The notes under the pieces are model-generated. The model was given only the letters and a program-made list of their open reading frames with translations, did not search any database and was not told where the DNA came from. A stretch of DNA of 64,000 bases from Nitrospiraceae bacterium. Lineage in GTDB: Bacteria; Nitrospirota; Thermodesulfovibrionia; UBA6902. The stretch is from the NCBI GenBank assembly GCA_003599425.1, contig QZKC01000068.1, positions 11,667 through 75,666 on the forward strand, written 5' to 3'. The number at the start of each line of letters is the position of its first letter. Position 1 is the first letter of the stretch. Below, in pieces: positions 28,575 through 47,740 of this stretch. A program made the translations under genes and the position numbers.

Positions 28575-28885
28575 TTGTCTTCTGCCTTTATCCTCACCTT
28601 AAACCTCTCAAGCCTGTTATGAAATCCGTCCTGCTCCTGCAATTCGAGTTCCCCCTCATGAAAGGTTTTTAGCAGCCTCATTTCATTTGATGTCACCCCA
28701 AGTATCAAAATTTCCTTGCCTACACGCAATGCCGCAACGCCCTTCTTTGGGCCAAAGGGCTGGTATCCGATGATACTCATAAAACCGCCCCTTGTCTGTT
28801 TCTTTTTCATAATGAACCCTGTTGCAATGATCAGAAAGATCACAAAAGCAAGCGCTACTGCCATCTGTACATATGTACCTGTCAT
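28571..28885 (-). CDS. fliO: FliO/FliZ-like flagellar protein
   Basis: 104 aa with a single N-terminal TM helix, between fliN and fliP. Confidence 0.6.
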   Translation of the reverse strand: MTGTYVQMAVALAFVIFLIIATGFIMKKKQTRGGFMSIIGYQPFGPKKGVAALRVGKEILILGVTSNEMRLLKTFHEGELELQEQDGFHNRLERFKVRIKAEDK

Positions 28886-29208
28886 TTCAGTTGGGTCAGC
28901 CTTTCTGTAGGGCTGATGATGTCGGTAAGCCTCACGCCGAATTTTTCATTTACTACGACAACCTCTCCTCTTGCCACCAGTCTGCTGTTTGCCAGTATCT
29001 CCATAGGTTCCCCTGCAAGCTTTTCAAGTTCTACAACAGAGCCCTGGCCAAGCTGTAGAAGCTCCTTTATCAGCATCTTTGTTCTCCCAAGCTGAACAGT
29101 GATCTCTACGGGGATGTCAAGAAGAAACTCTATATCCCTCGATCCTGATGTCTGTTTATTTTCATTCTGCACATTTTCAAATGCATGCTGCTGTATGTCC
29201 TGGTCCAT
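28882..29208 (-). CDS. fliN: Flagellar motor switch protein FliN
   Basis: SpoA domain (LLDIPVEITVQLGRTKMLIKELLQLGQGSVVEL). Confidence 0.85.
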   Translation of the reverse strand: MDQDIQQHAFENVQNENKQTSGSRDIEFLLDIPVEITVQLGRTKMLIKELLQLGQGSVVELEKLAGEPMEILANSRLVARGEVVVVNEKFGVRLTDIISPTERLTQLK

Positions 29209-29237: not shown

Positions 29238-30212
29238 TTATTCAATAATCCCGGTCAGTTTAACTGCCTGATTACCCCTGCTTATTCCCGGCATACCCTT
29301 GAACTTGGGGGAGTTCTCAACCTTCACGAGAAGCTCATCCGTAACTGATTTGCCGAGATTAATCACGTTCCCTACATTAAAGTTCATGAGGTCCTTGAAA
29401 TTGATAACCAGGCTGCCGACCTCGACCGTTACATTTAGGCTTGTGTCCATGAGATTGCTCTTCATTACCTGAGCCCACCTCTGGTCCGTTTCAAACTTGT
29501 TGCCATGTATCCCGGAGTAAAGTTTTTCCTTTACCGGCTCCACCATGGAATAAGGAACGCAAAAGAACATCTTGCCGGCAAAATCCTCTATCTCGATCAG
29601 CACCTCCACATTGATAACGATCTCTGACGGAGTAACGATAGTGACAAACTGGGGATTTATCTCGGAGCTGACATAGTCAGGATGCAAGGAGGCTATCCCA
29701 CTCCAAGCAACACCCATGTCCTTTAATGCGAGTTTCACAACCTTCTGAATCACCCGCTGCTCGATCGGCGTAAAGGCCCTTCCCTCTGATTTTATATGCT
29801 TTGCATTGGCCCCCCCGAAGAAAAATTCAATGAGAGCAAAGACAAGCGGCGCTTCTAACACAAGCAGCGAATATCCTTTCAGTGGTTCCATGGTGAATAC
29901 GTTAATGCTTGATGGCACGGGTATCGTTTTTATGAAATCCCCGAACTTTATCACTTCTACTGACTGTATGCTGATATCGATGAACTTCATGAGCAGGGAA
30001 GACACAGAACTCCTGAACAGCCTTGCAAAACTCTCATTTGCCACTTCCAGACCAGGCATACGGCCACGGATAATACGCTCCTGATTTGCAAAGTCATAAG
30101 ATCTGATACCGCCGACGATCTTGTCGCGGGCTTCTTCGGTGTCTATTTCTCCGGACGCAACTCCCTTGAGCAAGGCATCGACTTCATCCTGTGAAAGTAT
30201 CTTATCGCTCAT
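29238..30212 (-). CDS. fliM: Flagellar motor switch protein FliM
   Basis: LSQDEVDALL N-terminal CheY-P-binding motif. 324 aa. Confidence 0.9.
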   Translation of the reverse strand: MSDKILSQDEVDALLKGVASGEIDTEEARDKIVGGIRSYDFANQERIIRGRMPGLEVANESFARLFRSSVSSLLMKFIDISIQSVEVIKFGDFIKTIPVPSSINVFTMEPLKGYSLLVLEAPLVFALIEFFFGGANAKHIKSEGRAFTPIEQRVIQKVVKLALKDMGVAWSGIASLHPDYVSSEINPQFVTIVTPSEIVINVEVLIEIEDFAGKMFFCVPYSMVEPVKEKLYSGIHGNKFETDQRWAQVMKSNLMDTSLNVTVEVGSLVINFKDLMNFNVGNVINLGKSVTDELLVKVENSPKFKGMPGISRGNQAVKLTGIIE

Positions 30213-30706: not shown

Positions 30707-31005
30707 TATTATCAGCCCTCCATATTCATGGTTATTTCAAAAAACACGACTCATAACTTTCCCTCTATGAAACAAATACCATGCCAGTTATAACATCCTG
30801 TTAAATCAAGATTTACATAATAACTTTAATGTCAAAATAATGACCTTCATCGACAGATTTCGGATACCTCTCGGAGAAACCGTATTTTCCATTTTATGTA
30901 TTTCACTAAAGATATCCATGCATGTTCCGAAATTATTCAGTAGCTTGTCAGGGGCATCATACCCTCTTGCAGGTTTACGTACTAAACAGTCGAAGGAGAG
31001 AACGT

Positions 31006-32295
31006 ATGAGCAGTGAGATCAATCTTAAAGAAATAGACCTGGCAGGATTTGAAGAAAAAGTCTATGTGATCGCAGATGAAGTGCTTAACATACTTAAGGA
31101 ATTATCCAGGGAAAACAAAAAACAGATTAACAGCAAACTGATAGCTGAAAAGATGTTCCTGAACGAGTCGGTAAAAAGCACTTTTATTAATGCAAACGGC
31201 GTTTCGTCTTCAAAGGAAATTAATTCTCTTAAAGAAATGTCCCATACGATCCTGGATAAGTTCTCAGAACTTGTTCCATCTCATATGACCGAAAATCTCG
31301 GGGAACTTAGAGAAATATTCAATAATGAAAATACCATAAAAAGCGCAAAAGACTGGCTGGACTCACCGATCAATGTTATCAAGAAATACATTGATTCCCT
31401 GTCAAGCCGGAATAAAGAACTCGAAGATTTCCTGAAACAGACAATGCAGAGTCTTGTGACTATCGAAAATCCCATCACAAGTGAGTTGTCATCTCAGCAA
31501 AGTAAATTCAGGGAGGACATGGAATTCCATGACAGCATATCTAACTATATGGATTTAATGAAAGAAGAATGCAATATTTCCACAGACATTGACTCCCTTA
31601 AAAGAGCCTTTCTGAGCAGAATAGAAAATATTCATAAAGGCATTGAAATAAAGAGAGAGCAGGACATGGTGAGGTTAAAAGAAACGGAAAAAACTATTGA
31701 GGAAATGAAAAAGCGGATGGATGAAATCAAACGCGAAGCAGATGAAATAAGAAGAAAGTCGCAGGAAGTTGAGCTCGCAACATATTGCGATGCCCTTACC
31801 GGCATTCATAATCGGAAGGCGTATGATGAAAGAATAGCAGAAACTCTGGCCCATGTGCAGCGGTATAAAATCCCGGCTTCCCTGATGATCTGCGATATCG
31901 ATTTTTTCAAGAAGATAAATGATACCTTCGGCCATAAAGTCGGGGACCTGGCACTGAAAAAACTTGCGGAGCTTCTGAAAGAACGTCTTAGGAAAAATGA
32001 TTTTATTGCAAGGTACGGTGGAGAGGAGTTTGCAATTATCCTTCCGCATACGGACTTGAATGGAGCGATCATAGCTGGCGAAGGGATCAGGGCCTATATT
32101 GCGAAATCGGTCTTTTCATATAAAAGCCAGAAAATCCCCCTTACCATCAGCGTCGGCATCAGTTTTTTCAGAAAAGAAGACACTATCGATACCATTTTTG
32201 AAAGGGCTGATCAGGCACTTTATGCTGCCAAAAAGTCAGGGAGAAACCAGATAAAATCCGAAAATGATATCGTTTCAGCCTCCCCGTCAGAGTGA
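31006..32295 (+). CDS. Diguanylate cyclase (coiled-coil N-terminus + GGDEF domain)
   Basis: RBS GGAGAG, then ATG at 31006. The C-terminal domain has DALTGIHNRKAYDE and the active-site RYGGEEF. Transcribed divergently from fliL. Confidence 0.8.
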   Translation: MSSEINLKEIDLAGFEEKVYVIADEVLNILKELSRENKKQINSKLIAEKMFLNESVKSTFINANGVSSSKEINSLKEMSHTILDKFSELVPSHMTENLGELREIFNNENTIKSAKDWLDSPINVIKKYIDSLSSRNKELEDFLKQTMQSLVTIENPITSELSSQQSKFREDMEFHDSISNYMDLMKEECNISTDIDSLKRAFLSRIENIHKGIEIKREQDMVRLKETEKTIEEMKKRMDEIKREADEIRRKSQEVELATYCDALTGIHNRKAYDERIAETLAHVQRYKIPASLMICDIDFFKKINDTFGHKVGDLALKKLAELLKERLRKNDFIARYGGEEFAIILPHTDLNGAIIAGEGIRAYIAKSVFSYKSQKIPLTISVGISFFRKEDTIDTIFERADQALYAAKKSGRNQIKSENDIVSASPSE

Positions 32296-32473: not shown

Positions 32474-33898
32474 ATGCATAAGGCAACACTTGAAAGGCTG
32501 ATAAAAGAACTTACCCATTCCGATCCTTCGGGAAGGCGCTGCGCTGCGGAAGCGCTTTCCGAAGGTGATGAACGTGCTGTTTTCCCTTTACTGAAGGCAT
32601 TACACGACAGCAATTTAGGAGTGCAGGATGCCGCAATAAAGTCTCTTATGCGCATGAAAAACGAGACGACAGCGTATATGGTTATCCCCCTTCTCAGAGA
32701 AGATGTGTTTCTCAGGAATACAGCTTTGATCATCCTTAGGGAAATGGGAACCATTGCCATTCCGCTCATCCGAGCACTTCTGAACGATAAAGATGATGAT
32801 GTCAGAAAATTCGCTATTGACCTCATTTATGACATTAATTATTGCGATTATCCCGACAAACTGCTTGAAATACTCATGAACGATCCTAATGCAAATGTAC
32901 GTGCGTCTGCAGCGAAGACTCTGGGAAAACTGAACTTAAAGGAAGCAGTGCCATACCTTATCAAAGCTCTTAATGATGAAGAGTGGGTTTGTTTCTCCGC
33001 GCTCGAAGCGCTAACCGTGCTCAAAGACAACAGTGCAATCGCCCCTATCCTTGCATTGTCAGCGAGTCCTTCAGAAGCAATAAGGCTCGCAATGCTTGAA
33101 ACTCTAGGCAAGATAGGCTCTCAGGACATCCAGAAATTTTTAGCAGAACATGTATCAAAATCCAGCGGCCTCGAAAAACGGGCTGCCATTATAAGCCTTG
33201 TACAGTTAGGTATGATTCCTCCCTCAATGGACATCTTTGATGAACTTATCGATATGCTGATAACCAGTGACTGGGACGATAAGTATGTGGCTATCAAGGG
33301 ACTGCTTATTCTCAGAGATGAACGAGCTATTTACCATATGATAGATGTTGCCGGATCGATCGATTATTCAGCACCTGACAGACACGAAAAAATCCAGTTT
33401 ATCAGAGAAGCTGTAAGCAGCTTCGGGTGCAACAGATATCTATGTTCAATTCTTGACGATAATACAATGAGGTACAGAGGGAAGTCACTCGCTATTGAAA
33501 TAGCAGGTGATTTAAAGTGTCACTCAGTGGTTGACTCTCTTATAAAGCTTATAAAAAGCAATTCCAGAGACATAAGAAGGTCAAGCGTAGAATCGCTCGG
33601 AAAAATAGACAGCGGAAAGGCTCGCGATTACCTGTTTGAGGCAATCAGGGACCACGACAGCCACGTCAGGAAGTCTGCCGTTATAGCCCTTGGGAAGATA
33701 TGTGAAATGTCTGCATTTGAACCTCTCATGAAATTGCTCAACAAAGAAGTTTACTACGATGTTATCGATGAGATCATAAAATCGCTCCTTCAAATAAATG
33801 CGACTCTTTTTTTATCGCGTATCGGAGAATTGAACGATCAGATACGTAAAGTTGCAGCCAGACATGCACCGCTGTGTAACCCGGAGAGTTCATGCTGA
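32474..33898 (+). CDS. HEAT-repeat (PBS-lyase-like) protein, first gene of the che operon
   Basis: 474 aa of tandem HEAT-like repeats (RCAAEALSEGDERAVFPLLKALHD, VRASAAKTLGKLNLKEAVPYLIKALND, VRKSAVIALGKI). The stop overlaps the cheR start. Confidence 0.7.
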   Translation: MHKATLERLIKELTHSDPSGRRCAAEALSEGDERAVFPLLKALHDSNLGVQDAAIKSLMRMKNETTAYMVIPLLREDVFLRNTALIILREMGTIAIPLIRALLNDKDDDVRKFAIDLIYDINYCDYPDKLLEILMNDPNANVRASAAKTLGKLNLKEAVPYLIKALNDEEWVCFSALEALTVLKDNSAIAPILALSASPSEAIRLAMLETLGKIGSQDIQKFLAEHVSKSSGLEKRAAIISLVQLGMIPPSMDIFDELIDMLITSDWDDKYVAIKGLLILRDERAIYHMIDVAGSIDYSAPDRHEKIQFIREAVSSFGCNRYLCSILDDNTMRYRGKSLAIEIAGDLKCHSVVDSLIKLIKSNSRDIRRSSVESLGKIDSGKARDYLFEAIRDHDSHVRKSAVIALGKICEMSAFEPLMKLLNKEVYYDVIDEIIKSLLQINATLFLSRIGELNDQIRKVAARHAPLCNPESSC

Positions 33899-34716
33899 AC
33901 ATATTGCTCGCTGATTCAACATTCAATGAACTGCGGAATTATATTTATGAAAAATGCGGCATCTATATAACGGACACAAAGAAATATCTTGTCGAGAACA
34001 GGCTTTCAAGGATCCTGCAGGAAAAGAACCTGAACAATTTTGAAGAATATCTGAAACTTCTGAAATACAGTACGAACGGCAATGAGCTCAGCAGGCTCTT
34101 TGATGCGGTCACAACAAATGAAACGTATTTCTTCAGGGAACCGGACCAACTGCATGTTTTTCAGAACGAGATAATACCGAGGATCATCAGCCAGAAAAGA
34201 AATCCCCAGCAGTTAAAGATATGGTCTGCAGCATGCTCTTCCGGAGAAGAACCATATACGCTTTCAATGATGCTCCACGAAAAAGGGTACCATGCTAAGC
34301 AATTTGAAATATACGGCTCGGATATCAGTGAAACTGTGCTGCAATCAGCAAAAAGAGCTGTCTACAACTCATATTCAGTAAGAAACGTTCCTGTAGCATA
34401 TGCCAGAAAATACTTTTCATGCACAGGACAAACATACGCTCTCGATGAATCCATTAAAAATAGCGTCAAATTCATGAAGATAAACCTCATTGATGATAAG
34501 AACACGAGACTGCTGCGCAATTCAGATATAATCTTCTGTCGCAATGTACTCATTTATTTTGACGTTAAATCCAAACAGAAGGTTGCATCGCTCCTGTACG
34601 ACTGTTTAAATCCAGGAGGATATCTCTTAATAGGGGCCTCGGAAAGTCTCCATAATATCACAAGAGCTTTCAGGCCTAATATTTTAAATAAAGTGATCGC
34701 TTATCAGAAGGTTTGA
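33892..34716 (+). CDS. cheR: Chemotaxis protein methyltransferase CheR
   Basis: TNETYFFREPDQLHVF and the SAM-binding IWSAACSSGEEPYTLSMML. Confidence 0.9.
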   Translation: MLNILLADSTFNELRNYIYEKCGIYITDTKKYLVENRLSRILQEKNLNNFEEYLKLLKYSTNGNELSRLFDAVTTNETYFFREPDQLHVFQNEIIPRIISQKRNPQQLKIWSAACSSGEEPYTLSMMLHEKGYHAKQFEIYGSDISETVLQSAKRAVYNSYSVRNVPVAYARKYFSCTGQTYALDESIKNSVKFMKINLIDDKNTRLLRNSDIIFCRNVLIYFDVKSKQKVASLLYDCLNPGGYLLIGASESLHNITRAFRPNILNKVIAYQKV

Positions 34717-34764
34717 AATGATACTGATAATTTTTACATATGGAATGTGTTTCGGGGGGATATT

Positions 34765-35145
34765 ATGATAATTATGATCGTTGATGATTGCCAGACAACG
34801 AGGAAATTACTGGGCCATTATCTGAAATCGAGGGGATACAATGTAGTGTTCGCAGAAAACGGTCTTGATGCCCTTGAAAAGCTCGTAAGTGAAAAAGTAA
34901 ACCTTATCATGACAGACCTTAATATGCCGTATATGGATGGCATGGAGCTGATAAAAGCGCTGAAAACTGATCCGAGCCTGTCAGCAATACCGATCTTGAT
35001 GGTAACTACTGAAAACGATGCGTCAGAGAAAGAAAAAGCCATGCATTTCGGAGCAGACGGTTACCTGGTCAAACCCGTTACCGGAGACGCAATAGCTGAG
35101 AACATCAAATCAATTTTAAAACACATGTTTGTTCAAGGAGGTTAG
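34765..35145 (+). CDS. CheY-like single-domain response regulator
   Basis: Receiver-domain motifs ([24 protein letters not shown]). ATG at 34765 after GGGGGA. The track ORF begins at an upstream in-frame GTG. Confidence 0.8.
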
Positions 35146-35146
35146 T

Positions 35147-35542
35147 ATGCCGGACTTAAAGATGAAAATCCTTGTTGTCGATGATTTTTCAACAATGAGA
35201 AGAATAGTGAAAAATCTTCTCAGACAACTTGGATATGAAAATATTGAGGAAGCCGAGGATGGTGCCCAGGCGTATTTAAAGCTGAAAAACGGCGGCTACG
35301 GGTTTGTCGTAAGCGACTGGAACATGCCTAACATGGACGGGCTGGAACTTTTGAAGAAAGTTCGAAGCGATGCGGAATTGAAAGATATTCCAATGCTGAT
35401 GGTGACCGCCGAAGCAGAAAAAGAAAAAGTCATAACCGCCATACAGGCTGGTGTGAATAATTATGTTGTGAAGCCTTTCACAGGAGAGATATTAAAAGAG
35501 AAGATGGACAAAATATTTGAAAGACTGCAGGCACAGAAATAA
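35147..35542 (+). CDS. cheY: Chemotaxis response regulator CheY
   Basis: AGGAGG then ATG at 35147. [35 protein letters not shown] and NNYVVKPF. Confidence 0.85.
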
Positions 35543-35574: not shown

Positions 35575-37491
35575 ATGAACGATGAAATGGAAGAAATAAT
35601 TCTGGAATTTATTACGGAGGCAGAAGAATCCCTCGACAAAATCGAGCCTCGTTTTGTTGAGCTTGAGCAGAAAGGTGAGGATTCAGAGCTTCTCAATAAT
35701 ATTTTCAGATCCATGCATACTATCAAGGGGGCAGCAGGGTTTCTCGGTTTTCAATCGATTGTGGATGTGGCGCATGCAGCAGAGAATATCATGAAGAGAC
35801 TCCGGGACGGTGAGATAGCTCTCTCAAAGCCTCTCATGGATGCTATTCTCAAAGCTATAGACATGCTCAGACTTCTTCTCGGACATCTGAAGGAAAAAGA
35901 CGGCATTGAAGAAAACGTCTCCCCCCTGGTGCAGGAACTGAATATCGCTTTAAAGTCCGCAACGCCCAAAACAGGGAATGCCGCTCAAAATAAAGAACAG
36001 GTTGTCCCTTCCTCTCAAGCGCCAGAAGATTTCCCAAAACCCGCAAACGTGGTTCAGTCCACTAATTTGCAACAGCCTTCTGAACCAACGGATATCCCTG
36101 TTAATTCGTCGAAAACAATCATTACTTCAAAGCCTGATGAGACGCCTGTACAACCCAAGCAACATGGCGCCATACAACATCCTGTAAAAGTATGCGCAGA
36201 TTCCTCTATGCAGCCAAATGGTTCAGGGGAAAATGATCAGAAATCCAATGAAACACAGCAGCCATCCAAAGATACATCTCAAAAAGCACAGAATTTAAGA
36301 GTAGATGTTAACAGGATAGACAAGGTTATGGACCTCGCCGGTGAAGTAGTTCTGGTAAGAAACAGGCTCCTGAATATATCCAACTACTTTGATTTTAAAT
36401 ACACTGACGATCCCATGACGGAGATCCTGATGGAATCAGTCTCCTTTCTGGACCGAATCACCTCTGATATGCAGCTTGCTGTAATGAAAATGCGTATGCA
36501 GCCCATTCAGAAAGTATTCAGTAAGTTCCCGAGACTTGTACGGGATATTTCAGCGTCAGTCAATAAGGACGTGGAGTTGCAGATATTCGGAGAAGGCACG
36601 GAGGTTGACAAGACTGTAATAGAAAACATCGGGGATCCAATGACCCATATTTTGAGAAACTCTATTGACCATGGTATTGAATCAACTGAGGAGCGGATAG
36701 CCAAAGGCAAATCGCCCAAAGGCAAGATAGTGGTCAATACGTATCAAAAAGGGACCCAGATAGTTATTGAAATCTCAGATGACGGAAAAGGTATGGATGT
36801 GGACAAGCTGAAGAGAAAAGCAATAGATAAGGGCATCCTGTCTGAAGATGAAGCACAGAAGATGTCATATGAAGATGCCATAGACATCATATTCATGCCG
36901 GGTTTCTCCACCAAGGAAATTGCTACAGAACTCAGCGGGCGAGGGGTAGGAATGGATGTCGTTAAAACCAATATATCGCTCTTAAACGGTTATGTCGAGG
37001 TGTCAACAGAAAAAAATGTAGGAACAACATTTAAAATCAGCATACCTCTGACCCTGGCCATAATTCAGGCTCTTATGGTTGAAGTTGATGGCGCCAAATA
37101 TGCCATACCTCTTTCACCCATAGAAGAAACTCTGAAGGTTGCAAAAAAAGATATCACCAATATCACCGGTCAAAATGTCATTGTCATCCGTGACAAGGTG
37201 TGCCCTCTTTTTGAGCTCAACAGTATCCTTGGCATAGACTCCAACGGTCATGGAAGTTCCGATGATGCTGAATATAAATATGTCATTGTTATAACTATGG
37301 GAGACAAAAAATTCTGTTTAGCCATTGACAAGCTTGTAGGCCAGGAAGAGGTTGTTATCAAGGCCCTGAACGGGCTGGACACGACAACTTCTTATGTCCT
37401 TGGCGCGACAATAACTGGCGACGGAAAGGTTGTTTTCATTCTTGATGTTGCCGGCATGTCTAGAAATCTGCTTGGACTGGCAAAAGTTTAG
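35575..37491 (+). CDS. cheA: Chemotaxis histidine kinase CheA
   Basis: Hpt motif SMHTIKGAAGFLGF. HATPase G-boxes (GRGVGMDVV). C-terminal CheW-like domain. 638 aa. Confidence 0.9.
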   Translation: MNDEMEEIILEFITEAEESLDKIEPRFVELEQKGEDSELLNNIFRSMHTIKGAAGFLGFQSIVDVAHAAENIMKRLRDGEIALSKPLMDAILKAIDMLRLLLGHLKEKDGIEENVSPLVQELNIALKSATPKTGNAAQNKEQVVPSSQAPEDFPKPANVVQSTNLQQPSEPTDIPVNSSKTIITSKPDETPVQPKQHGAIQHPVKVCADSSMQPNGSGENDQKSNETQQPSKDTSQKAQNLRVDVNRIDKVMDLAGEVVLVRNRLLNISNYFDFKYTDDPMTEILMESVSFLDRITSDMQLAVMKMRMQPIQKVFSKFPRLVRDISASVNKDVELQIFGEGTEVDKTVIENIGDPMTHILRNSIDHGIESTEERIAKGKSPKGKIVVNTYQKGTQIVIEISDDGKGMDVDKLKRKAIDKGILSEDEAQKMSYEDAIDIIFMPGFSTKEIATELSGRGVGMDVVKTNISLLNGYVEVSTEKNVGTTFKISIPLTLAIIQALMVEVDGAKYAIPLSPIEETLKVAKKDITNITGQNVIVIRDKVCPLFELNSILGIDSNGHGSSDDAEYKYVIVITMGDKKFCLAIDKLVGQEEVVIKALNGLDTTTSYVLGATITGDGKVVFILDVAGMSRNLLGLAKV

Positions 37492-37554: not shown

Positions 37555-39222
37555 ATGAAATCGGTGTTTGCACGCAGCGGCAATTTAAATTTGCCAATCA
37601 GAAAGAAATTGTTAATCGGCATTATACCCTTTTCCCTGCTTCTCACGCTTATCACCATCGGTACTTTTTTCTACAATTTAAACGTAATGCGCCTTACTGA
37701 TATGTACCCCGAGATAGCACGATGCAGCATGCTGCATGATCAGGTCAAAGAGTTAAGTCAAATTCTCAGCAGTTCCCAACCCGGCAGAGATAAACTGAGC
37801 AAAGTAAAAAATATATATAAAAATAAGCCGGATTTACTGTCAAAGCTCAACAGCTTCGAACACGACGACAAGGAATTAGATGAAATGGAAGATCTTTTCT
37901 TTAATTACCTCGACAAAGGCAATGCAATTTCATCCGGATCATCCGAAGAGTCAATACACTCCAGTATTACTGAACTTACCAGCCTGACCGATACTCTGGT
38001 AAACAGACTATATAAGCATTATGATGAAGAACACAAGGGATTAATTATCAATATTGGGGAAGTACGAGATTCTGCTACAGGCTCAAGGGTCTTTATTTTA
38101 TTGATGACTATTTTGACAGTGATAATAGTAATTGTAGCGATTTACCTCACAAACAGGGATTATGGATACTCCATCAGCAGGATCATAGATACTGCTCAAT
38201 CAATCAGCAACGGACATCTCTATCTACCTGAGATCAAAGTCAAAACACATGATGAGATCGAAAAACTCGTTGATTCAATAAACGTGATGAAGAATGGACT
38301 TAACCAAATGATCGGCAATATAAAGGAGTTATCTGGCAGGATATATAACGTATCGGACAATCTAATGTCATCTTCCGAGATAATAAGCAAAGACACTAAA
38401 GAACAGGTTATCAATACAGGTAAAGTTGCTAATGCGGTTGAAATGATGAGTGTCGTCGTATTTGATGTAACGCAAAACTCAAGCATAGCCGCTGAATCCG
38501 CAAAGGAAGCCGCTGATCTTGCCAGAAAAGGCAGTGAAGTCGTCACTGAGACAATATACGGGATGAACCGAATATCTGATACTGTCAATCAATCAGCTCA
38601 TACAATAGAAGTGCTCGGCAAGAGATCAGAGCAAATCGGTGAAATAATCAAAGTTATCAATGATATCGCAAATCAGACAAATCTTCTCGCATTGAATGCA
38701 GCAATTGAGGCGGCCCGTGCAGGGGAGCAGGGAAGAGGTTTTGCCGTAGTTGCGGACGAAGTCAGAAAACTTGCGGAAAGGACTACAGCAGCGACTAATG
38801 AAATAGGTGAAATGATCAAAAGCATTCAGATCGAAACCAGTAATGCGGTTTCAGCAATGCATTCTGCCACAAAAGAGGTTGAGAGTGGGGTCAACCTTTC
38901 CAATCAGGCCGATTCGTCACTGAAGCAAATAGTGACATCGGTAAGAAGTGTGACTGAGATGATACAAAGTATAGCAGTTGCTGCCAGGCAGCAAGGCTCA
39001 ACTGGTGAAGATGTATCATCCACTCTGCAGGAAATAGCGAATGAAAACACTCAGACCGCGGATGAAGCAAGTAAATATCTTGAAACAACACAGCAATTGA
39101 GACTCATTTCACAGGAATTAACAGGCTTAGTCAGTAAATTCAAAATTCAATCTGCTGATCACAATACTATTGCCAATGAAAAGAGGAGGTATACGTGCAA
39201 CAGTACATCGGCTTTAATTTAA
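37555..39222 (+). CDS. Methyl-accepting chemotaxis protein
   Basis: Two TM helices, HAMP domain, and the highly conserved signalling core [35 protein letters not shown]. Confidence 0.85.
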
Positions 39223-40433
39223 ATAAAAATGAATATATGATCCCAATATTAAAGGTGCGGGAGATCATCACCATGCCGTCAATTACAGTTTTACCGCATC
39301 TGCCTTCATATATAAGAGGAATAACGAACCTCAGGGGAACCGTTATCCCGATTGTAAATCTTAAATGCCTGCTCAGTTCAGAAAGCAATAAAGAAACAGG
39401 AAAAACAGTAATAGTAATTTCCGCTGGAAAGTTAACCTACGGGATAATAATAGACGGAATAACCGGTGTTGTGAAGGTAGATGAATCAAATATCGAGCTT
39501 CCAGAGAAGATCATCAGCAGTACCATGGACATTCTTGAAGGAGTGGCAAAGCTCGATAACAGGCTTATAGTTCTGCTGAATACACAAAAAATTCTTCCTA
39601 TAGACGACATGAGTTTACTTGAAGAAACCATCGTCAATGTAAACAGTCTCGGTGACGGAAATGACATCGAGGTGATCAAAGAGATTGACACAATTGGAGG
39701 TAAAGTCACGATAAAAGAAATGCGCCATGCTCAGGATTTCTTCAGCAGCAAGTTTGAAAAAGGCGACCCCAAGCACGTAATATTTGAGCTTATGCTGAAA
39801 TTTATGGACGCCGTAGCGTCAAATGACTATCAAAAAATAGATGTCATTGTCGAACAATTGATAAGGGCAACAGACAGTGATATCTTCAAGGAAATAGGGA
39901 AAATAACCAGGAAACTGCACGATTCCCTCGAAGAATTCAAGGGCGCCATCAACAACGGCCTGCAAAGGATCACTGAAAACGACGTCCCAAATGCAGTTGA
40001 TAATCTCCAGTTCGTAATAAGAAAAACCGAAGATGCGGCAAATAAAACAATGGGTATTGTTGAGAGATACTTTGAAGAATCTAATGATTTCGCAAAACAT
40101 CTGGGATCAATAAAGGGATATGAGGAATCAGTCGGTTATATGAGAACGTTTAAAGATTCACTGGATAATGACATGACCATGATCCTTACCGCCCAGCAGT
40201 TTCAGGACATCACAGGGCAAACCATTAAAAAAGTCATTGATCTTGTAAACAATGTGGAAGTTGAGCTTTTAAGATTAATAACAAAATTCGGCATGTTGAT
40301 AAAAACCGATTCCGAAAAGGTTGCAGTTGGGGTCGGCACAAGGCACAATACAGAAGGCACAACAGCAGATAAATCTGCGGAAAAGATTTCACAGTCTGAT
40401 GTCGAGTCGCTGCTGAATGAGTTTGGCTTTTAA
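39195..40433 (+). CDS. CheW-domain / CheZ-like phosphatase fusion protein
   Basis: GTG start after AGGAGG. Residues 1-140 are a CheW-like domain ([18 protein letters not shown]...[15 protein letters not shown]). The C-terminal 250 aa is helical with [20 protein letters not shown] (compare the CheZ catalytic motif DFQDLTGQ) and ends in ESLLNEFGF (compare the CheZ CheY-binding tail DDLLDSLGF). Confidence 0.7.
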
Positions 40434-40513: not shown

Positions 40514-40963
40514 ATGGAACATACCATGGTAAATGATCAGGTCCTTCAACTTGTCACATTCACACTTGAAAAAGAAGAATACGCTGTCAATATCCTGAAT
40601 GTCCAGGAGATAAACAGGATAAACGAGATCACACGGGTACCCAATGCCCCCGACTATGTGGAAGGGGTTATCAATCTGAGGGGTAAAGTAATCCCGGTAA
40701 TCAATCTCAGAAAGAAATTTGGCCTCTACAACAAAGAAACCGACGAATCTTCCAGGGTTATCATAATGGATATAATGGGAGTGACCTACGGCCTCATAGT
40801 GGATTCAGTTTCTGAGGTACTGAGGATTCCCTCAGATATTGTTGAACCCCCTCCTCCTATGGCATCAAGCATGACGAGCATGTACATAAAAGGTATAGCA
40901 AAACTTGAGAACAGACTCATTATATTTGTCGATATCGACAAGCTGCTGGGACAATTAGAATAA
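40514..40963 (+). CDS. cheW: Chemotaxis coupling protein CheW
   Basis: LVTFTLEKEEYAVNILNVQEI...INLRGKVIPVINLRKKFG. 149 aa. Confidence 0.85.
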   Translation: MEHTMVNDQVLQLVTFTLEKEEYAVNILNVQEINRINEITRVPNAPDYVEGVINLRGKVIPVINLRKKFGLYNKETDESSRVIIMDIMGVTYGLIVDSVSEVLRIPSDIVEPPPPMASSMTSMYIKGIAKLENRLIIFVDIDKLLGQLE

Positions 40964-40997: not shown

Positions 40998-42038
40998 ATG
41001 GTAAAGGTTTTGATTGTCGACGATTCTGCATTTATGCGTAATGCCCTCACCAGCATGATATCTGCTGACCCTGAAATTCAGGTCATCGGTGTTGCCCGTG
41101 ACGGTATAGAAGCTGTTGAAAAAGTCTCTCAATTAAAACCCGATATCGTGACACTTGATGTGGAAATGCCGAGAATGAACGGGATCGAGGCCTTGAGGCA
41201 GATCATGCATAATAACCCTGTTCCTGTTCTCATGGTCAGTTCCCTCACTACAGAAGGAGCCAAGGTCACACTTGAGGCCCTTGATATCGGAGCTGTCGAT
41301 TTTATTCCAAAAAATCTTTCAGATCTTTCCATCAACATTGTAAAGATCAAAGAAGACCTGATAGAGAAGATAAAGAAGATCGGCAGGAAGGGTCTTCCAG
41401 TATTCAGGAAAACACCATCTGCCAAAAGCCTTCAGATACCGAAAGCATCTATTGATGCTGCTCACAGAAGAGTTCATATTGTTGCAATAGGTTCATCCAC
41501 AGGAGGCCCCAAGGCGCTGCAGAATATTATTACCAAATTGCCTAAAGATTTCCCGGTTCCCATTCTTATTGCCCAGCATATGCCGCCGAATTTCACCGGC
41601 CCTTTTGCTGAAAGGCTGAACCAGCTAAGCTCCATAACAGTTAAAGAAGCTGAAAACGGTGAGACCGTCAAGAAGGGAGTTGTCTATATAGCTCCGGGTA
41701 AAGGACATATGCGGATTGTCCGGAAAAAAATCACGGAAACGACAATATCAATATCAGAAAGCAGGGAAAATTATATTTACAGGCCTTCCGTTGATGCACT
41801 TATTCTCTCAATTGTAGAAAACTTTTCCGGTCATGTTCTTGGCGTAATCCTGACCGGGCTCGGTAATGATGGCCTGACTGGGATGAAAGAAATCAAAAAT
41901 AATGGCGGCAGAACCATAGCCGAAAGCGAAAATTCATGTGTTGTATACGGAATGCCCAAGGCAGTAGTGGATGCAGGTCTCGCCGATAAAATCGTGTCTG
42001 TCGAAGAAGTGGCGGGTGAGATAATTAACTCGGTATAG
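40998..42038 (+). CDS. cheB: Chemotaxis methylesterase CheB
   Basis: Receiver domain (KVLIVDDSAFMR) plus methylesterase domain with GSSTGGPKAL. Confidence 0.9.
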   Translation: MVKVLIVDDSAFMRNALTSMISADPEIQVIGVARDGIEAVEKVSQLKPDIVTLDVEMPRMNGIEALRQIMHNNPVPVLMVSSLTTEGAKVTLEALDIGAVDFIPKNLSDLSINIVKIKEDLIEKIKKIGRKGLPVFRKTPSAKSLQIPKASIDAAHRRVHIVAIGSSTGGPKALQNIITKLPKDFPVPILIAQHMPPNFTGPFAERLNQLSSITVKEAENGETVKKGVVYIAPGKGHMRIVRKKITETTISISESRENYIYRPSVDALILSIVENFSGHVLGVILTGLGNDGLTGMKEIKNNGGRTIAESENSCVVYGMPKAVVDAGLADKIVSVEEVAGEIINSV

Positions 42039-45926: not shown

Positions 45927-46940
45927 CTATTGGTTCTTCTCATCCCTGTTGTTGATCTCGTCACCTAAGTCTTTCGCATTTTCCAGGTTGGCATTAGCCA
46001 GGATCGAATTTTTGATTTCGTTCAAGGCATTTCCTACGGTGGAACCTGTTCCGTAGCCCGGGTTGAGATACTGTAATATCTGTAGTTCGCCAGCAGTCAG
46101 TACTGTTGATTCCGGAAGGCTTGAAGCCACATTAAGACATAATGCAGCATATTGCTGTTTAGCCTTTTGAAGCATGGTCTTTTTACCTTGCATGGATAAG
46201 TAATAGTTCAGGTCATTGGTTGAAGTAAATACCCCACCACATTTTATGACAGCAGCATCAATAAATGAATTCCTTTCTTCATCATGTGTCTTCCAAAAAC
46301 CCATACTCCGCGCACCGCTTGGAGCGTTGACAGTAGGAGGCGTGCCGTCAATCAGTCCTGTAAATATGTTTGATGTGCTGTCATTTTTGAAGTCTCCGCT
46401 GACCATTTGAAGTATCATCTTCATGCCAAGTGTTGCATTTGTTCCTATGACACTTCTCAGTTCATCTATATATTGTGAAGGATGACCAGTATCTGTGTTT
46501 AAAACGACATTAGTTAGATTCAAGGTCCCAGAATTATTAATATCAAGGGCAGGGTTCAAATACCACTTTAATCCATCGGTTACAAACACTATGTTTGATA
46601 AAGTAGCAGAGAAATAGTTGAATGACCCGTCACTTATCGTAATGACTGCATCAGAGAAAGTAGAGTCTCCTGTCCTTGTAGCGCCACTGATAATTACGGA
46701 TTTACCGATTGCAGTTTCGGTAGCACCGTTATCAGTAGTTGATGTTCCATTAATATAGTTGATATTGGATATTACAGCGCTTACAAGGATCAAAGAGCCG
46801 GTACTCGTTTCTGTAGTCGCTGTTGTCTGCGCATTCCCAGAAAAATTTGCTGTGGGCAAGCCGATTACTGCAAAGGCACTTCCAAAGCTTAACAAAAGCA
46901 AGAATAGAACTGCCACCTGAACATAAAAATATTTTTTCAT
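45927..46940 (-). CDS. Secreted hypothetical protein, paralog of the adjacent PEP-CTERM protein (lacks the sorting tag)
   Basis: Signal peptide (LLLLSFGSAFA). Central region shares homology with the 47018..47740 protein (SGTLNLTNVVLNTDTGHPSQYIDELRSVIGTNATLGMKM versus HTISNLTNVSFNANGSRYIQELQTMYNSGSKINLGMDF). 337 aa. Confidence 0.6.
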   Translation of the reverse strand: MKKYFYVQVAVLFLLLLSFGSAFAVIGLPTANFSGNAQTTATTETSTGSLILVSAVISNINYINGTSTTDNGATETAIGKSVIISGATRTGDSTFSDAVITISDGSFNYFSATLSNIVFVTDGLKWYLNPALDINNSGTLNLTNVVLNTDTGHPSQYIDELRSVIGTNATLGMKMILQMVSGDFKNDSTSNIFTGLIDGTPPTVNAPSGARSMGFWKTHDEERNSFIDAAVIKCGGVFTSTNDLNYYLSMQGKKTMLQKAKQQYAALCLNVASSLPESTVLTAGELQILQYLNPGYGTGSTVGNALNEIKNSILANANLENAKDLGDEINNRDEKNQ

Positions 46941-47017: not shown

Positions 47018-47740
47018 TTATGACCTTTTCCTTTTCCTGAAACGATTTACGGCTAACATGGCACCGCCTGTAATGAAAAGAACTGTACTTACAGGTTCTG
47101 GAGTAACAGCGATTTTGCCCTGAATACTACCGGAAGCATCATTTGAGAACGCATAACCACCCCCATTGACCCCGGAATTAAAAGAAAAATCCATACCAAG
47201 ATTTATCTTGCTGCCTGAATTATACATCGTTTGTAACTCCTGAATATATCTTGATCCGTTTGCATTAAAAGAAACATTTGTAAGATTTGATATGGTGTGG
47301 TCCCATAAAGGATTTAATTGGGTTCCAAATAAATTATCAGTAATTATAAAATTATTGAGTTGTGCAGTAAGATAAGTTGTTCCACCATTTGCAATAGTAA
47401 AAAGAACAGAACCAGTTCCTCCGGAAGTACTTCCGAATTGCAAATTATTTGAATAGGCGCTGTTATAGAGATTGGCGATTGAAATTACTGCACCTGTAAC
47501 TGGATCAATCCCTTCCCCAACGTAGCTTCCATCCATATAATTAACGCCTGTTATATTCCAACCACTAAATGTAAGCTTATATTTATTCGCAGTCGATCCC
47601 CCAACGCCATCATTATAAGAAAAACTTGCAGCATAATCCAGATATGGCAGATATGGGTACTCAGCTATTGCGTTTTTTGAAAAAAAGAAGGCGATAAAAA
47701 ACAGGATAAAAAACAATAATTTTTTTGGGCCCACCTTCAT
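47018..47740 (-). CDS. PEP-CTERM sorting-domain secreted protein
   Basis: Signal peptide. C-terminus VTPEPVSTVLFITGGAMLAVNRFRKRKRS is the PEP motif, a TM helix and a basic cluster. Confidence 0.7.
   Translation of the reverse strand: MKVGPKKLLFFILFFIAFFFSKNAIAEYPYLPYLDYAASFSYNDGVGGSTANKYKLTFSGWNITGVNYMDGSYVGEGIDPVTGAVISIANLYNSAYSNNLQFGSTSGGTGSVLFTIANGGTTYLTAQLNNFIITDNLFGTQLNPLWDHTISNLTNVSFNANGSRYIQELQTMYNSGSKINLGMDFSFNSGVNGGGYAFSNDASGSIQGKIAVTPEPVSTVLFITGGAMLAVNRFRKRKRS

Follow-up and report, generated by a model that had tools for sequence, protein, structure and literature searches.

The window analysed here, a 64-kb stretch of a Nitrospiraceae contig, carries a chemotaxis (che) operon bounded by fliL/fliM and flgE/flgD/fliK. 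The genes considered below are as follows, Pfam being the basis of assignment for cheR, cheY1, cheA, mcp, cheW and cheB:

29238..30212, minus strand: fliM, whose product carries the CheY-binding motif MSDKILSQDEVDALLKG at its N-terminus and, as the target at the motor, competes for CheY with the CheZ peptide
33892..34716, plus strand: cheR
34747..35145, plus strand: cheY1, a second response regulator with a single domain, more divergent than cheY2 (97.9 bits for NCBIfam CheY, where the cut-off is 189)
35129..35542, plus strand: cheY2, an E. coli-type CheY (198.4 bits for the NCBIfam CheY equivalog, which requires 189)
35575..37491, plus strand: cheA, with Hpt, dimerisation, HATPase and CheW-like P5 domains
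37555..39222, plus strand: mcp (HAMP and MCP signalling domain), its 3' end overlapping the start of cheWZ
39195..40433, plus strand: cheWZ, a complete CheW-CheZ fusion ORF of 412 aa with a GTG start and its stop codon at 40431-40433
40514..40963, plus strand: stand-alone cheW (Pfam CheW, 140.7 bits)
40998..42038, plus strand: cheB

The flagellar linkage, the CheY-binding N-terminus of FliM (LSQDEVDALL) and the canonical CheY2 together mark this as a flagellar (F-class) chemosensory system. CheY2, which carries the motifs DWNMPNMDG and YVVKPFT, is 82-93% conserved in related loci and is the probable substrate of CheWZ. Domains of the CheC, CheX, CheD and FliY families were found in none of the ORFs tested across the 64-kb window (100 aa or longer), and the FliN encoded there is short (108 aa) and lacks a CheC domain. 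A scan of the che operon for promoters and terminators gave counts equal to chance expectation.

The first 28 nt of cheWZ, beginning with its GTG codon, are shared with the 3' end of the mcp gene before it. The assignment of this GTG as the start is supported by the GAGGAGG sequence that precedes it and by the conservation among homologues of residues 1-14, the part of the CheW fold that makes up strand 1. In the public JGI gene call, the same protein (P0001) has 398 aa and begins at Met15, so that strand 1 is truncated. The parts of the gene and its predicted product are:

39183..39189, plus strand: Shine-Dalgarno sequence GAGGAGG, read directly in the sequence, 5 nt before the GTG and within the 3' end of mcp
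39195..39599, plus strand: CheW-like domain, residues 1-135 (Pfam, PDB sequence match, AF2 and Foldseek)
39600..39869, plus strand: connector, residues 136-225 (approximately), in which a beta meander of three strands (145-178) and then two short helices (192-208 and 212-225) are predicted
39870..40289, plus strand: CheZ core, with long helices at about 229-305 and 310-364 (Pfam, alignment with 1KMI_Z, predicted secondary structure)
40194..40220, plus strand: catalytic motif QQFQDITGQ, residues 334-342, identified by alignment with 1KMI_Z and invariant in both homologue alignments
40290..40388, plus strand: variable linker, residues 366-398, predicted to be disordered (pLDDT below 50)
40389..40430, plus strand: predicted C-terminal CheY-binding peptide with a short helix (400-409), aligned with E. 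coli CheZ

The initial annotation had placed a CheW-like domain at the N-terminus of this ORF and a canonical cheW directly after it, and both assignments hold. Pfam CheW (PF01584) matches residues 3-134 at 109.6 bits (gathering cut-off 23.5, E 1e-31), covering positions 1-134 of the 138 in the profile, and a phmmer search of PDB sequences aligns residues 2-145 with E. coli CheW (2HO9, E 2e-23). In particular, E23, R47 and G42 align with E38, R62 and G57 of E. coli CheW; the E38/R62 Glu-Arg pair is functionally important in array-forming CheW. All three residues are invariant among 44 homologues (alignment A1), and the equivalents of E23 and R47 are also invariant in 11 distant fusions (alignment A2, whose members are 30-38% identical to its first sequence). 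An AF2 model of residues 1-135, with pLDDT mostly between 56 and 78, recovers the two-subdomain beta-barrel fold of CheW, and Foldseek matches it with TM scores of 0.80-0.83 to 6S1K_C, 2CH4_Y/W and 8C5V_E; the 6S1K and 8C5V matches are CheW within E. coli core signalling units. The domain is 39% identical to the stand-alone CheW of the same operon.

Between this domain and the CheZ part lies a connector for which Pfam and NCBIfam searches gave no family match. Its beta meander contains a conserved 13-residue stretch, and the junction region between both domains is conserved among homologues. The beta motif is shared with two distant fusions (P0129 and P0278); several other distant fusions have low-complexity linkers instead. 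AF2 models the connector with low confidence (pLDDT 39-53).

The C-terminal half was previously annotated as a CheZ domain extending from residue 150, and its family assignment stands, whereas CheZ homology begins only at about residue 226. Pfam CheZ (PF04344) matches it in two stretches, the best of which, at 120.5 bits (gathering cut-off 30.7, E 1e-34), places residues 316-412 on positions 107-203 of the 203 in the profile; the distant fusions cover profile positions 2-203. Moreover, phmmer aligns residues 227-293 and 326-412 with residues 14-77 and 131-214 of E. coli CheZ (1KMI_Z, E 4e-11). The two core helices are predicted to form a hairpin that corresponds to the helical bundle of E. coli CheZ. 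Foldseek returned 1KMI for the modelled helical half at rank 50 (E 1.6) in one run and not in a second, at a moderate model confidence (pLDDT 61-69) and for a class of structure, the long helical hairpin, that Foldseek discriminates poorly; over the structural alignment, no more than 16% of residues are identical to those of 1KMI_Z. NCBIfam equivalog cut-offs are missed by both halves, at 85 against 260 bits for CheW and 74.3 against 257 bits for the enterobacterial CheZ (NF008368), which points to a divergent subfamily and not to an equivalog of E. coli CheZ. Neither a receiver (Response_reg/REC) nor a CheC-like domain was detected in the CheWZ protein by Pfam.

The sequence FQDITGQ, which had been recognised as a CheZ catalytic signature, aligns as expected: D338 (40206-40208) corresponds to D143 of E. 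coli CheZ and Q342 (40218-40220) to Q147. The pattern QQFQD..GQ is invariant among the 44 homologues, as are the catalytic residues in the 11 distant fusions. The proposed CheY-binding tail was likewise recovered, the last 15 residues aligning with the CheY-binding C-terminal peptide of E. coli CheZ (residues 200-214); within it, Q400, S401, D402, V403, L407 and F412 are invariant among the 44 homologues. Mean identity is 0.67 in the CheW domain, 0.73-0.78 in the helices and 0.84 in the C-terminal peptide, and it drops to 0.28 in the linker. Conserved ends joined by a variable linker form the pattern expected of two functional ends connected by a tether. The peptide sequence SQSDVESLL also resembles the FliM N-terminus encoded in the same window, with SQxxV[DE]xLL in common.

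The fusion is widely conserved. Among the matches listed in two independent database searches, more than 200 homologues contain both domains, down to approximately 30% identity; the best 120 all carry the CheW and CheZ Pfam domains within 390-430 aa, and ten representatives at 32-47% identity are CheW-CheZ fusions as well. A single cheWZ ORF is kept in loci from 18 different MAGs. Homologues from Thermodesulfovibrio MAGs share about 47% identity with it. The order HEAT-cheR-cheY1-cheY2-cheA-(mcp)-cheWZ-cheW-cheB is kept in 15 Thermodesulfovibrionia loci (L001-L014, L017-L018) and is partly present on two short contigs (L015-L016); in those related loci that include flanking sequence, the che cluster lies between fliM/fliL and flgE/flgD. 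In most of these loci cheWZ directly follows cheA, a slot that normally belongs to a cheW, and an mcp gene between the two was detected in only three (L008, L009 and L018). A Thermodesulfobacteriota contig shows the order cheY-cheWZ-cheA-cheB-motA-motB, in which the fusion holds the position that cheZ occupies in the stand-alone cheY-cheZ-cheA order of another locus (L019). Some distant fusions are orphan genes away from cheA and mcp genes: one adjoins flagellin, flaG, fliD and fliS, and another lies among unrelated metabolic genes.

These data point to the cheWZ product as a flagellar CheY-P phosphatase of the CheZ type that a functional CheW domain would anchor covalently in the receptor-CheA array, a reading to which we assign a probability of roughly 0.7. 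The earlier proposal that CheWZ is the CheY-P phosphatase of the operon is thus supported, at the level of sequence, by the HMM scores, the residue alignment and the lack of other phosphatase families among the ORFs tested in the window, a lack that the initial annotation had also described. Judged from the 64 kb viewed, CheWZ would be the sole phosphatase of the organism; other phosphatases may be encoded in the genome outside the window. In the mechanism that we propose, the CheZ part would dimerise via its long helical hairpin, and the flexible C-terminal peptide, similar to the N-terminus of FliM, would capture CheY2-P. D338 and Q342 would then be inserted into the CheY active site and accelerate hydrolysis. 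The N-terminal CheW domain would fill CheW positions at the receptor-CheA baseplate, beside the separate canonical CheW, and the outcome would be co-localisation of kinase and phosphatase, which E. coli reaches by an indirect route, CheA-short.

The part played by the fused CheW domain could be read differently. The most serious competitor, though clearly less probable, is that CheWZ resembles CheV in being mainly a receptor-class-specific coupling protein that builds part of the array, its CheZ part being secondary; a dimeric CheZ with two CheW domains would link adjacent CheW sites or rings to one another, and its activity could be set allosterically by the state of the receptors and not just be localised. 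An additional adaptor that carries a domain for handling phosphoryl groups has a precedent in CheV (CheW-REC; PMC4742279). The usual cheW slot after cheA, the invariant CheW signature residues and the translational coupling of mcp to cheWZ in this window agree with such a role, as does a connector whose beta element is conserved and apparently structured, and not purely floppy. However, the connector model has low confidence, the low-complexity sequence that replaces it in several distant fusions favours a simple tether, mcp was detected at the upstream position in only the three related loci mentioned above, and allosteric control would be purely hypothetical.

A stronger version, which we regard as doubtful, would make the CheZ dimer with its two CheW domains an integral element of the baseplate that cross-links CheW sites, with the connector placing the phosphatase under receptor control. 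If this were true, receptors would regulate both the kinase and the phosphatase, a dual control that is not known from any CheZ system. Equally improbable is a CheW-like domain that docks outside the array, whether on another partner or as an autoinhibitory or oligomerisation module, which would leave CheWZ a cytoplasmic or motor-proximal CheZ. Since a separate canonical CheW is retained, the fused domain is not needed as an adaptor and could have another partner, and the orphan position of some distant fusions fits this picture; yet the close match in sequence and structure to array-forming CheW, the invariant equivalents of E38 and R62, and a conservation of the CheW domain across the family that equals that of CheA all speak for the array. 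Finally, there is next to no chance that an assembly or sequencing error (a frameshift or a lost stop codon) joined separate cheW and cheZ genes: a split version does occur on one public contig of 1.35 kb (L029), where the ORFs for CheW (180 aa) and CheZ (240 aa) share 4 nt, but this split is explained by a single-base frameshift of the fusion inside the conserved beta motif and is probably itself an artefact or a pseudogene, and the conservation of the fusion, its junction and its synteny led us to reject this origin, one by which the initial annotation might have failed.

The tethered-phosphatase reading bears on a general question, as CheY-P gradients and the speed of the response depend on where the kinase and the CheY-P phosphatase are located with respect to each other. 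Elsewhere, evolution has produced several non-covalent solutions, among them CheA-short (E. coli), ChePep (Helicobacter) and FliY at the motor. E. coli CheZ (1KMI) shares with CheWZ the Pfam family, the Asp/Gln pair within a DFQDLTGQ-type motif, the helical hairpin (predicted in CheWZ), the variable linker and the C-terminal CheY-binding peptide, and the predicted outcome, a phosphatase beside the kinase, is the same. E. coli CheZ is reportedly brought to receptor clusters by binding the P1 remnant of CheA-short (Cantwell et al. 2003), whereas the tether of CheWZ would be covalent, via an N-terminal CheW domain, and an additional 90-residue connector is present. In H. pylori, CheZ(HP) has no CheW domain and is localised via a separate partner, ChePep, independently of the core array. 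Like CheWZ, it is a remote CheZ beyond the beta- and gammaproteobacteria with a lineage-specific solution to localisation.

Covalent placement of a phosphatase on a fixed pathway component also occurs with another family. FliY is a CheC-like phosphatase fused to FliN, which puts the phosphatase on the motor switch. In Leptospira, CheA-CheC/CheX fusions join a CheY-P phosphatase covalently to the kinase (PMC10542144). Both belong to the CheC/CheX fold, which is unrelated to CheZ, and the anchor in CheWZ would be CheW and not CheA or FliN. CheV is similar in that an N-terminal CheW-like adaptor precedes a C-terminal module that handles phosphoryl groups derived from CheA, while a stand-alone CheW co-exists (PMC4742279); it differs from CheWZ in carrying a receiver domain in place of the CheZ phosphatase.

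The novelty implied by the initial annotation was overstated. Database homologues at 57-77% identity are named CheZ by NCBI (PGAP 'protein phosphatase CheZ', Nitrospirota MAGs), and the JGI name for homologues is 'chemotaxis signal transduction protein/CheY-phosphate phosphatase CheZ'. Moreover, a CheW-like domain fused to CheZ receives a one-line mention among rare Pfam architectures (Vass et al. 2022). CheWZ belongs to this catalogued set and does not differ from it in kind. Beyond that mention, the literature searched contained no study of the function, distribution or operon context of CheW-CheZ fusions.

A natural and widely conserved covalent fusion of CheW and CheZ is the simplest conceivable placement of the phosphatase and would provide a clean test system for the principle of co-localisation; it also raises a structural puzzle, namely how the hexagonal array would accommodate a CheW that is dimeric and two-headed. 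Its practical value is limited, since most of the organisms have not been cultured and the architecture is already on record. As the family shows, phosphatases of the CheZ type are the flagellar standard in Thermodesulfovibrionia, a lineage that does not belong to the Proteobacteria. The CheZ subfamily also has stand-alone relatives, P0198 and P0146; for P0146, a contig end at a distance of 110 nt makes the stand-alone status uncertain.

The product of the fusion gene cheWZ combines a CheW domain with a CheZ domain, an identity that can be regarded as practically certain. In Pfam, residues 3-134 match CheW (PF01584) with 109.6 bits (cut-off 23.5) and two stretches of the C-terminal part match CheZ (PF04344) with 120.5 bits (cut-off 30.7), which bears out the two-domain, 412-aa ORF proposed in the initial annotation. 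Among PDB sequences, E. coli CheW (2HO9) aligns with residues 2-145 (E 2e-23), and residues 14-77 and 131-214 of E. coli CheZ (1KMI_Z) align with residues 227-293 and 326-412; E38, G57, and R62 of E. coli CheW correspond to E23, G42, and R47 of CheWZ. In the 1KMI_Z alignment, QQFQDITGQ of CheWZ is paired with AQDFQDLTGQ of E. coli CheZ, which places D338 and Q342 on D143 and Q147, and the C-terminus is paired with the E. coli CheY-binding peptide ASQDQVDDLLDSLGF; the catalytic Asp/Gln signature and the CheZ-type tail claimed earlier were both recovered. The enterobacterial equivalog cut-offs of NCBIfam are not reached by CheWZ (CheZ, 74 vs 257 bits; CheW, 85 vs 260), and the protein belongs to the Pfam families CheZ and CheW without being an equivalog of the enterobacterial proteins.

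The gene and its ribosome-binding site are as follows.
39195-40433, + strand: cheWZ ORF, 412 codons, GTG start
39183-39189, + strand: strong Shine-Dalgarno sequence GAGGAGG, five bases 5' of the cheWZ GTG
The first 28 nt of cheWZ are shared with the 3' end of the preceding mcp gene. A public JGI gene call for an identical protein (P0001, 398 aa) begins at the ATG of Met15 and does not include the GTG-initiated residues 1-14 (window 39195-39236). The GTG is preferred because of the strong Shine-Dalgarno sequence and because these 14 residues, which make up the first CheW strand, are conserved among homologues.

A search of 5.8 billion proteins with CheWZ gave 1315 matches, the best 120 of which share 57-100% identity, measure 386-420 aa, and all contain both Pfam domains. 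Cluster representatives (1.84 billion searched) yielded full-length fusions down to 32% identity, with CheW and CheZ confirmed by Pfam in ten distant ones, and a profile of distant fusions retrieved at least 120 further two-domain proteins. The conservation of the two-domain ORF in homologues from separate searches leads us to reject a split or frameshift origin of the fusion, the artefact that the initial annotation had named as a possible objection. According to the names in the source records, the family is mainly found in Nitrospirota (Thermodesulfovibrionales, Dissulfurispiraceae, and Thermodesulfovibrio MAGs), with one branch in Thermodesulfobacteriota. On a 1.35-kb public contig (L029:51-1312), a frameshift of one base within the conserved beta motif divides the fusion into cheW (180 aa) and cheZ (240 aa); this one split version found represents an assembly error or else a pseudogene or gene fission. 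In P0130 (262 aa, from the cluster representatives), only the first ~60 CheW residues are present and are joined directly to the CheZ part, which may reflect a deletion variant or chimeric assembly.

In an alignment of 44 homologues, the catalytic residues Q334-D338, G341, and Q342, the C-terminal Q400, S401, D402, V403, L407, and F412, and V21, E23, I24, G42, and R47 of the CheW part are invariant; the same catalytic and CheW residues are still invariant among 11 fusions at 30-38% identity. Mean identity to the window protein is 0.67 for CheW, 0.50 for the connector (residues 136-225), 0.73-0.78 for the CheZ helices, 0.28 for the variable linker before the C-terminal peptide, and 0.84 for the peptide itself, a pattern that indicates purifying selection on both ends of CheWZ and a free-evolving linker.

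An AF2 model built on the 44 homologues (mean pLDDT 61, moderate confidence) predicts the following elements.
Residues 1-135: CheW double barrel
Residues 145-178: three beta strands
Residues 192-225: two short helices
Residues 229-305 and 310-364: two very long helices
Residues 365-399: disordered stretch
Residues 400-409: short terminal helix
In Foldseek, the N-terminal domain superposes (TM 0.80-0.83) on CheW from core signalling units of E. coli and Thermotoga. For the helical half, which the initial annotation had proposed to superimpose on the CheZ four-helix bundle, Foldseek was uninformative on both the full model and a separate model of residues 185-412, so the CheZ assignment rests on sequence. 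The connector (window 39600-39869) has no family match in Pfam or NCBIfam. It bears a conserved motif, DG..VEV.KE..T.GGKVTVKE, for which a beta meander of three strands is predicted, with two helices after it; among fusions at ~30-38% identity, the beta motif is present in P0129, P0278, and P0133 and absent from P0170, P0264, and P0137.

The context of cheWZ is flagellar: the + strand che operon is inserted into a large - strand flagellar regulon.
che operon, + strand: GGDEF cyclase, HEAT-repeat protein, cheR, cheY1, cheY2, cheA, mcp, cheWZ, cheW, cheB
fliL side, - strand: flgK, flgN, flgI, flgH, flgA, flgG, flgF, fliA, flhG, flhF, flhA, flhB, fliR, fliP, fliO, fliN, fliM, fliL
flgE side, - strand: flgE, flgD, fliK
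Pfam assignments confirm that, as first described, a stand-alone cheW directly follows cheWZ. The HEAT-repeat gene (32474-33898, +, 474 aa), the first conserved gene of the operon, overlaps the cheR start (33892) with its stop and occupies the same position in 15 related Thermodesulfovibrionia loci (46-67% identity). A gene for a GGDEF diguanylate cyclase (30922-32295, +), whose N-terminal region is coiled, lies directly 5' of the operon and is flanked by fliL and the HEAT gene; it is kept only in some related loci (L001-L003, L005, L018), and it hints at a connection of the motility cluster with c-di-GMP. Past fliK, between flagellar and ion-transporter genes, two - strand ORFs (45927-46940, 337 aa; 47018-47740, 240 aa) have no significant match in Pfam or NCBIfam.

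When the window proteins were compared by tblastn with related Thermodesulfovibrionia loci, the order HEAT-cheR-cheY1-cheY2-cheA-cheWZ was kept in 15 (L001-L014, L017-L018). The genes cheW and cheB directly follow cheWZ in 10 of those, are arranged differently in L011/L012 and L014, and in L013 fall past the end of the contig. Only part of the che cluster is contained in the short contigs L015 and L016. In most related loci cheWZ directly follows cheA, mcp being detected between them only in L008, L009, and L018. A Thermodesulfobacteriota contig has the order cheY-cheWZ-cheA-cheB-motA-motB, and a Thiotrichaceae locus (L019) has cheY-cheZ-cheA with a stand-alone cheZ; the fusion on the former is positionally equivalent to this cheZ. 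Other distant fusions are orphan genes, one adjoining flagellin, flaG, fliD, and fliS.

Among the ORFs of 100 aa or more that were tested in the 64-kb window, none has a CheC, CheX, CheD, or FliY domain, in agreement with the earlier claim that the operon has no cheC, cheX, or FliY. FliN (28882-29208, -) is a minimal 108-aa protein with FliMN_C only, and the motor switch therefore has no FliY-type phosphatase domain. The tandem genes cheY1 and cheY2 (34747-35145 and 35129-35542, +) overlap, and their products share 40% identity. CheY2 is E. coli-like, highly conserved (82-93%), and passes the NCBIfam CheY equivalog cut-off (198.4 vs 189 bits); CheY1 falls below it and could be a phosphate sink or second output. 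The FliM N-terminus, which starts with MSDKILSQDEVDALLKG, has the classical CheY-binding motif and resembles the CheWZ C-terminal SQSDVESLL. The pattern SQxxV[DE]xLL is common to the FliM N-terminus LSQDEVDALLKG (30162-30212, -) and the CheWZ C-terminus (40389-40430, +), and would fit competition of both proteins for the same CheY surface.

The best-supported reading, with a probability of about 0.68 for the mechanism as a whole, is that CheWZ would be a CheZ-type phosphatase that uses its own CheW domain as an anchor on the receptor-kinase array, with CheY2-P as the substrate captured by its C-terminal peptide in competition with FliM. Dimerisation, the Asp/Gln catalytic mechanism, and docking at CheA-P5 and receptor tips would follow from what is reportedly established for E. 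coli CheZ and CheW. The initial observation of the fusion is confirmed, and its interpretation as a tethered CheY-P phosphatase is supported at the sequence level. The CheW domain might also act away from the array, a role that would fit poorly with the invariant CheW signature. A stronger variant, in which two CheW sites are bridged by a CheWZ dimer and receptors regulate the phosphatase via the conserved connector, is unlikely because low-complexity sequence replaces the connector in several distant fusions.

The proposed tethering of a phosphatase through CheW has functional parallels in known systems. E. coli CheZ is reportedly localised by CheA-short. Further parallels are CheV, which joins CheW to a receiver domain (PMC4742279), and the CheA-CheC/CheX fusions of Leptospira (PMC10542144). 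CheZ is on record in Nitrospiria, Deferribacteres, and Aquificia (PMC12887009). Vass et al. 2022 mention the joining of CheW-like domains to CheZ as one of several rare Pfam architectures. In the searched literature, one key review aside, no analysis or test of a CheW-CheZ fusion was found. The fusion is an uncharacterised yet already catalogued architecture and is not new to the databases: such proteins are named 'protein phosphatase CheZ' by NCBI PGAP and 'chemotaxis signal transduction protein/CheY-phosphate phosphatase CheZ' by JGI.
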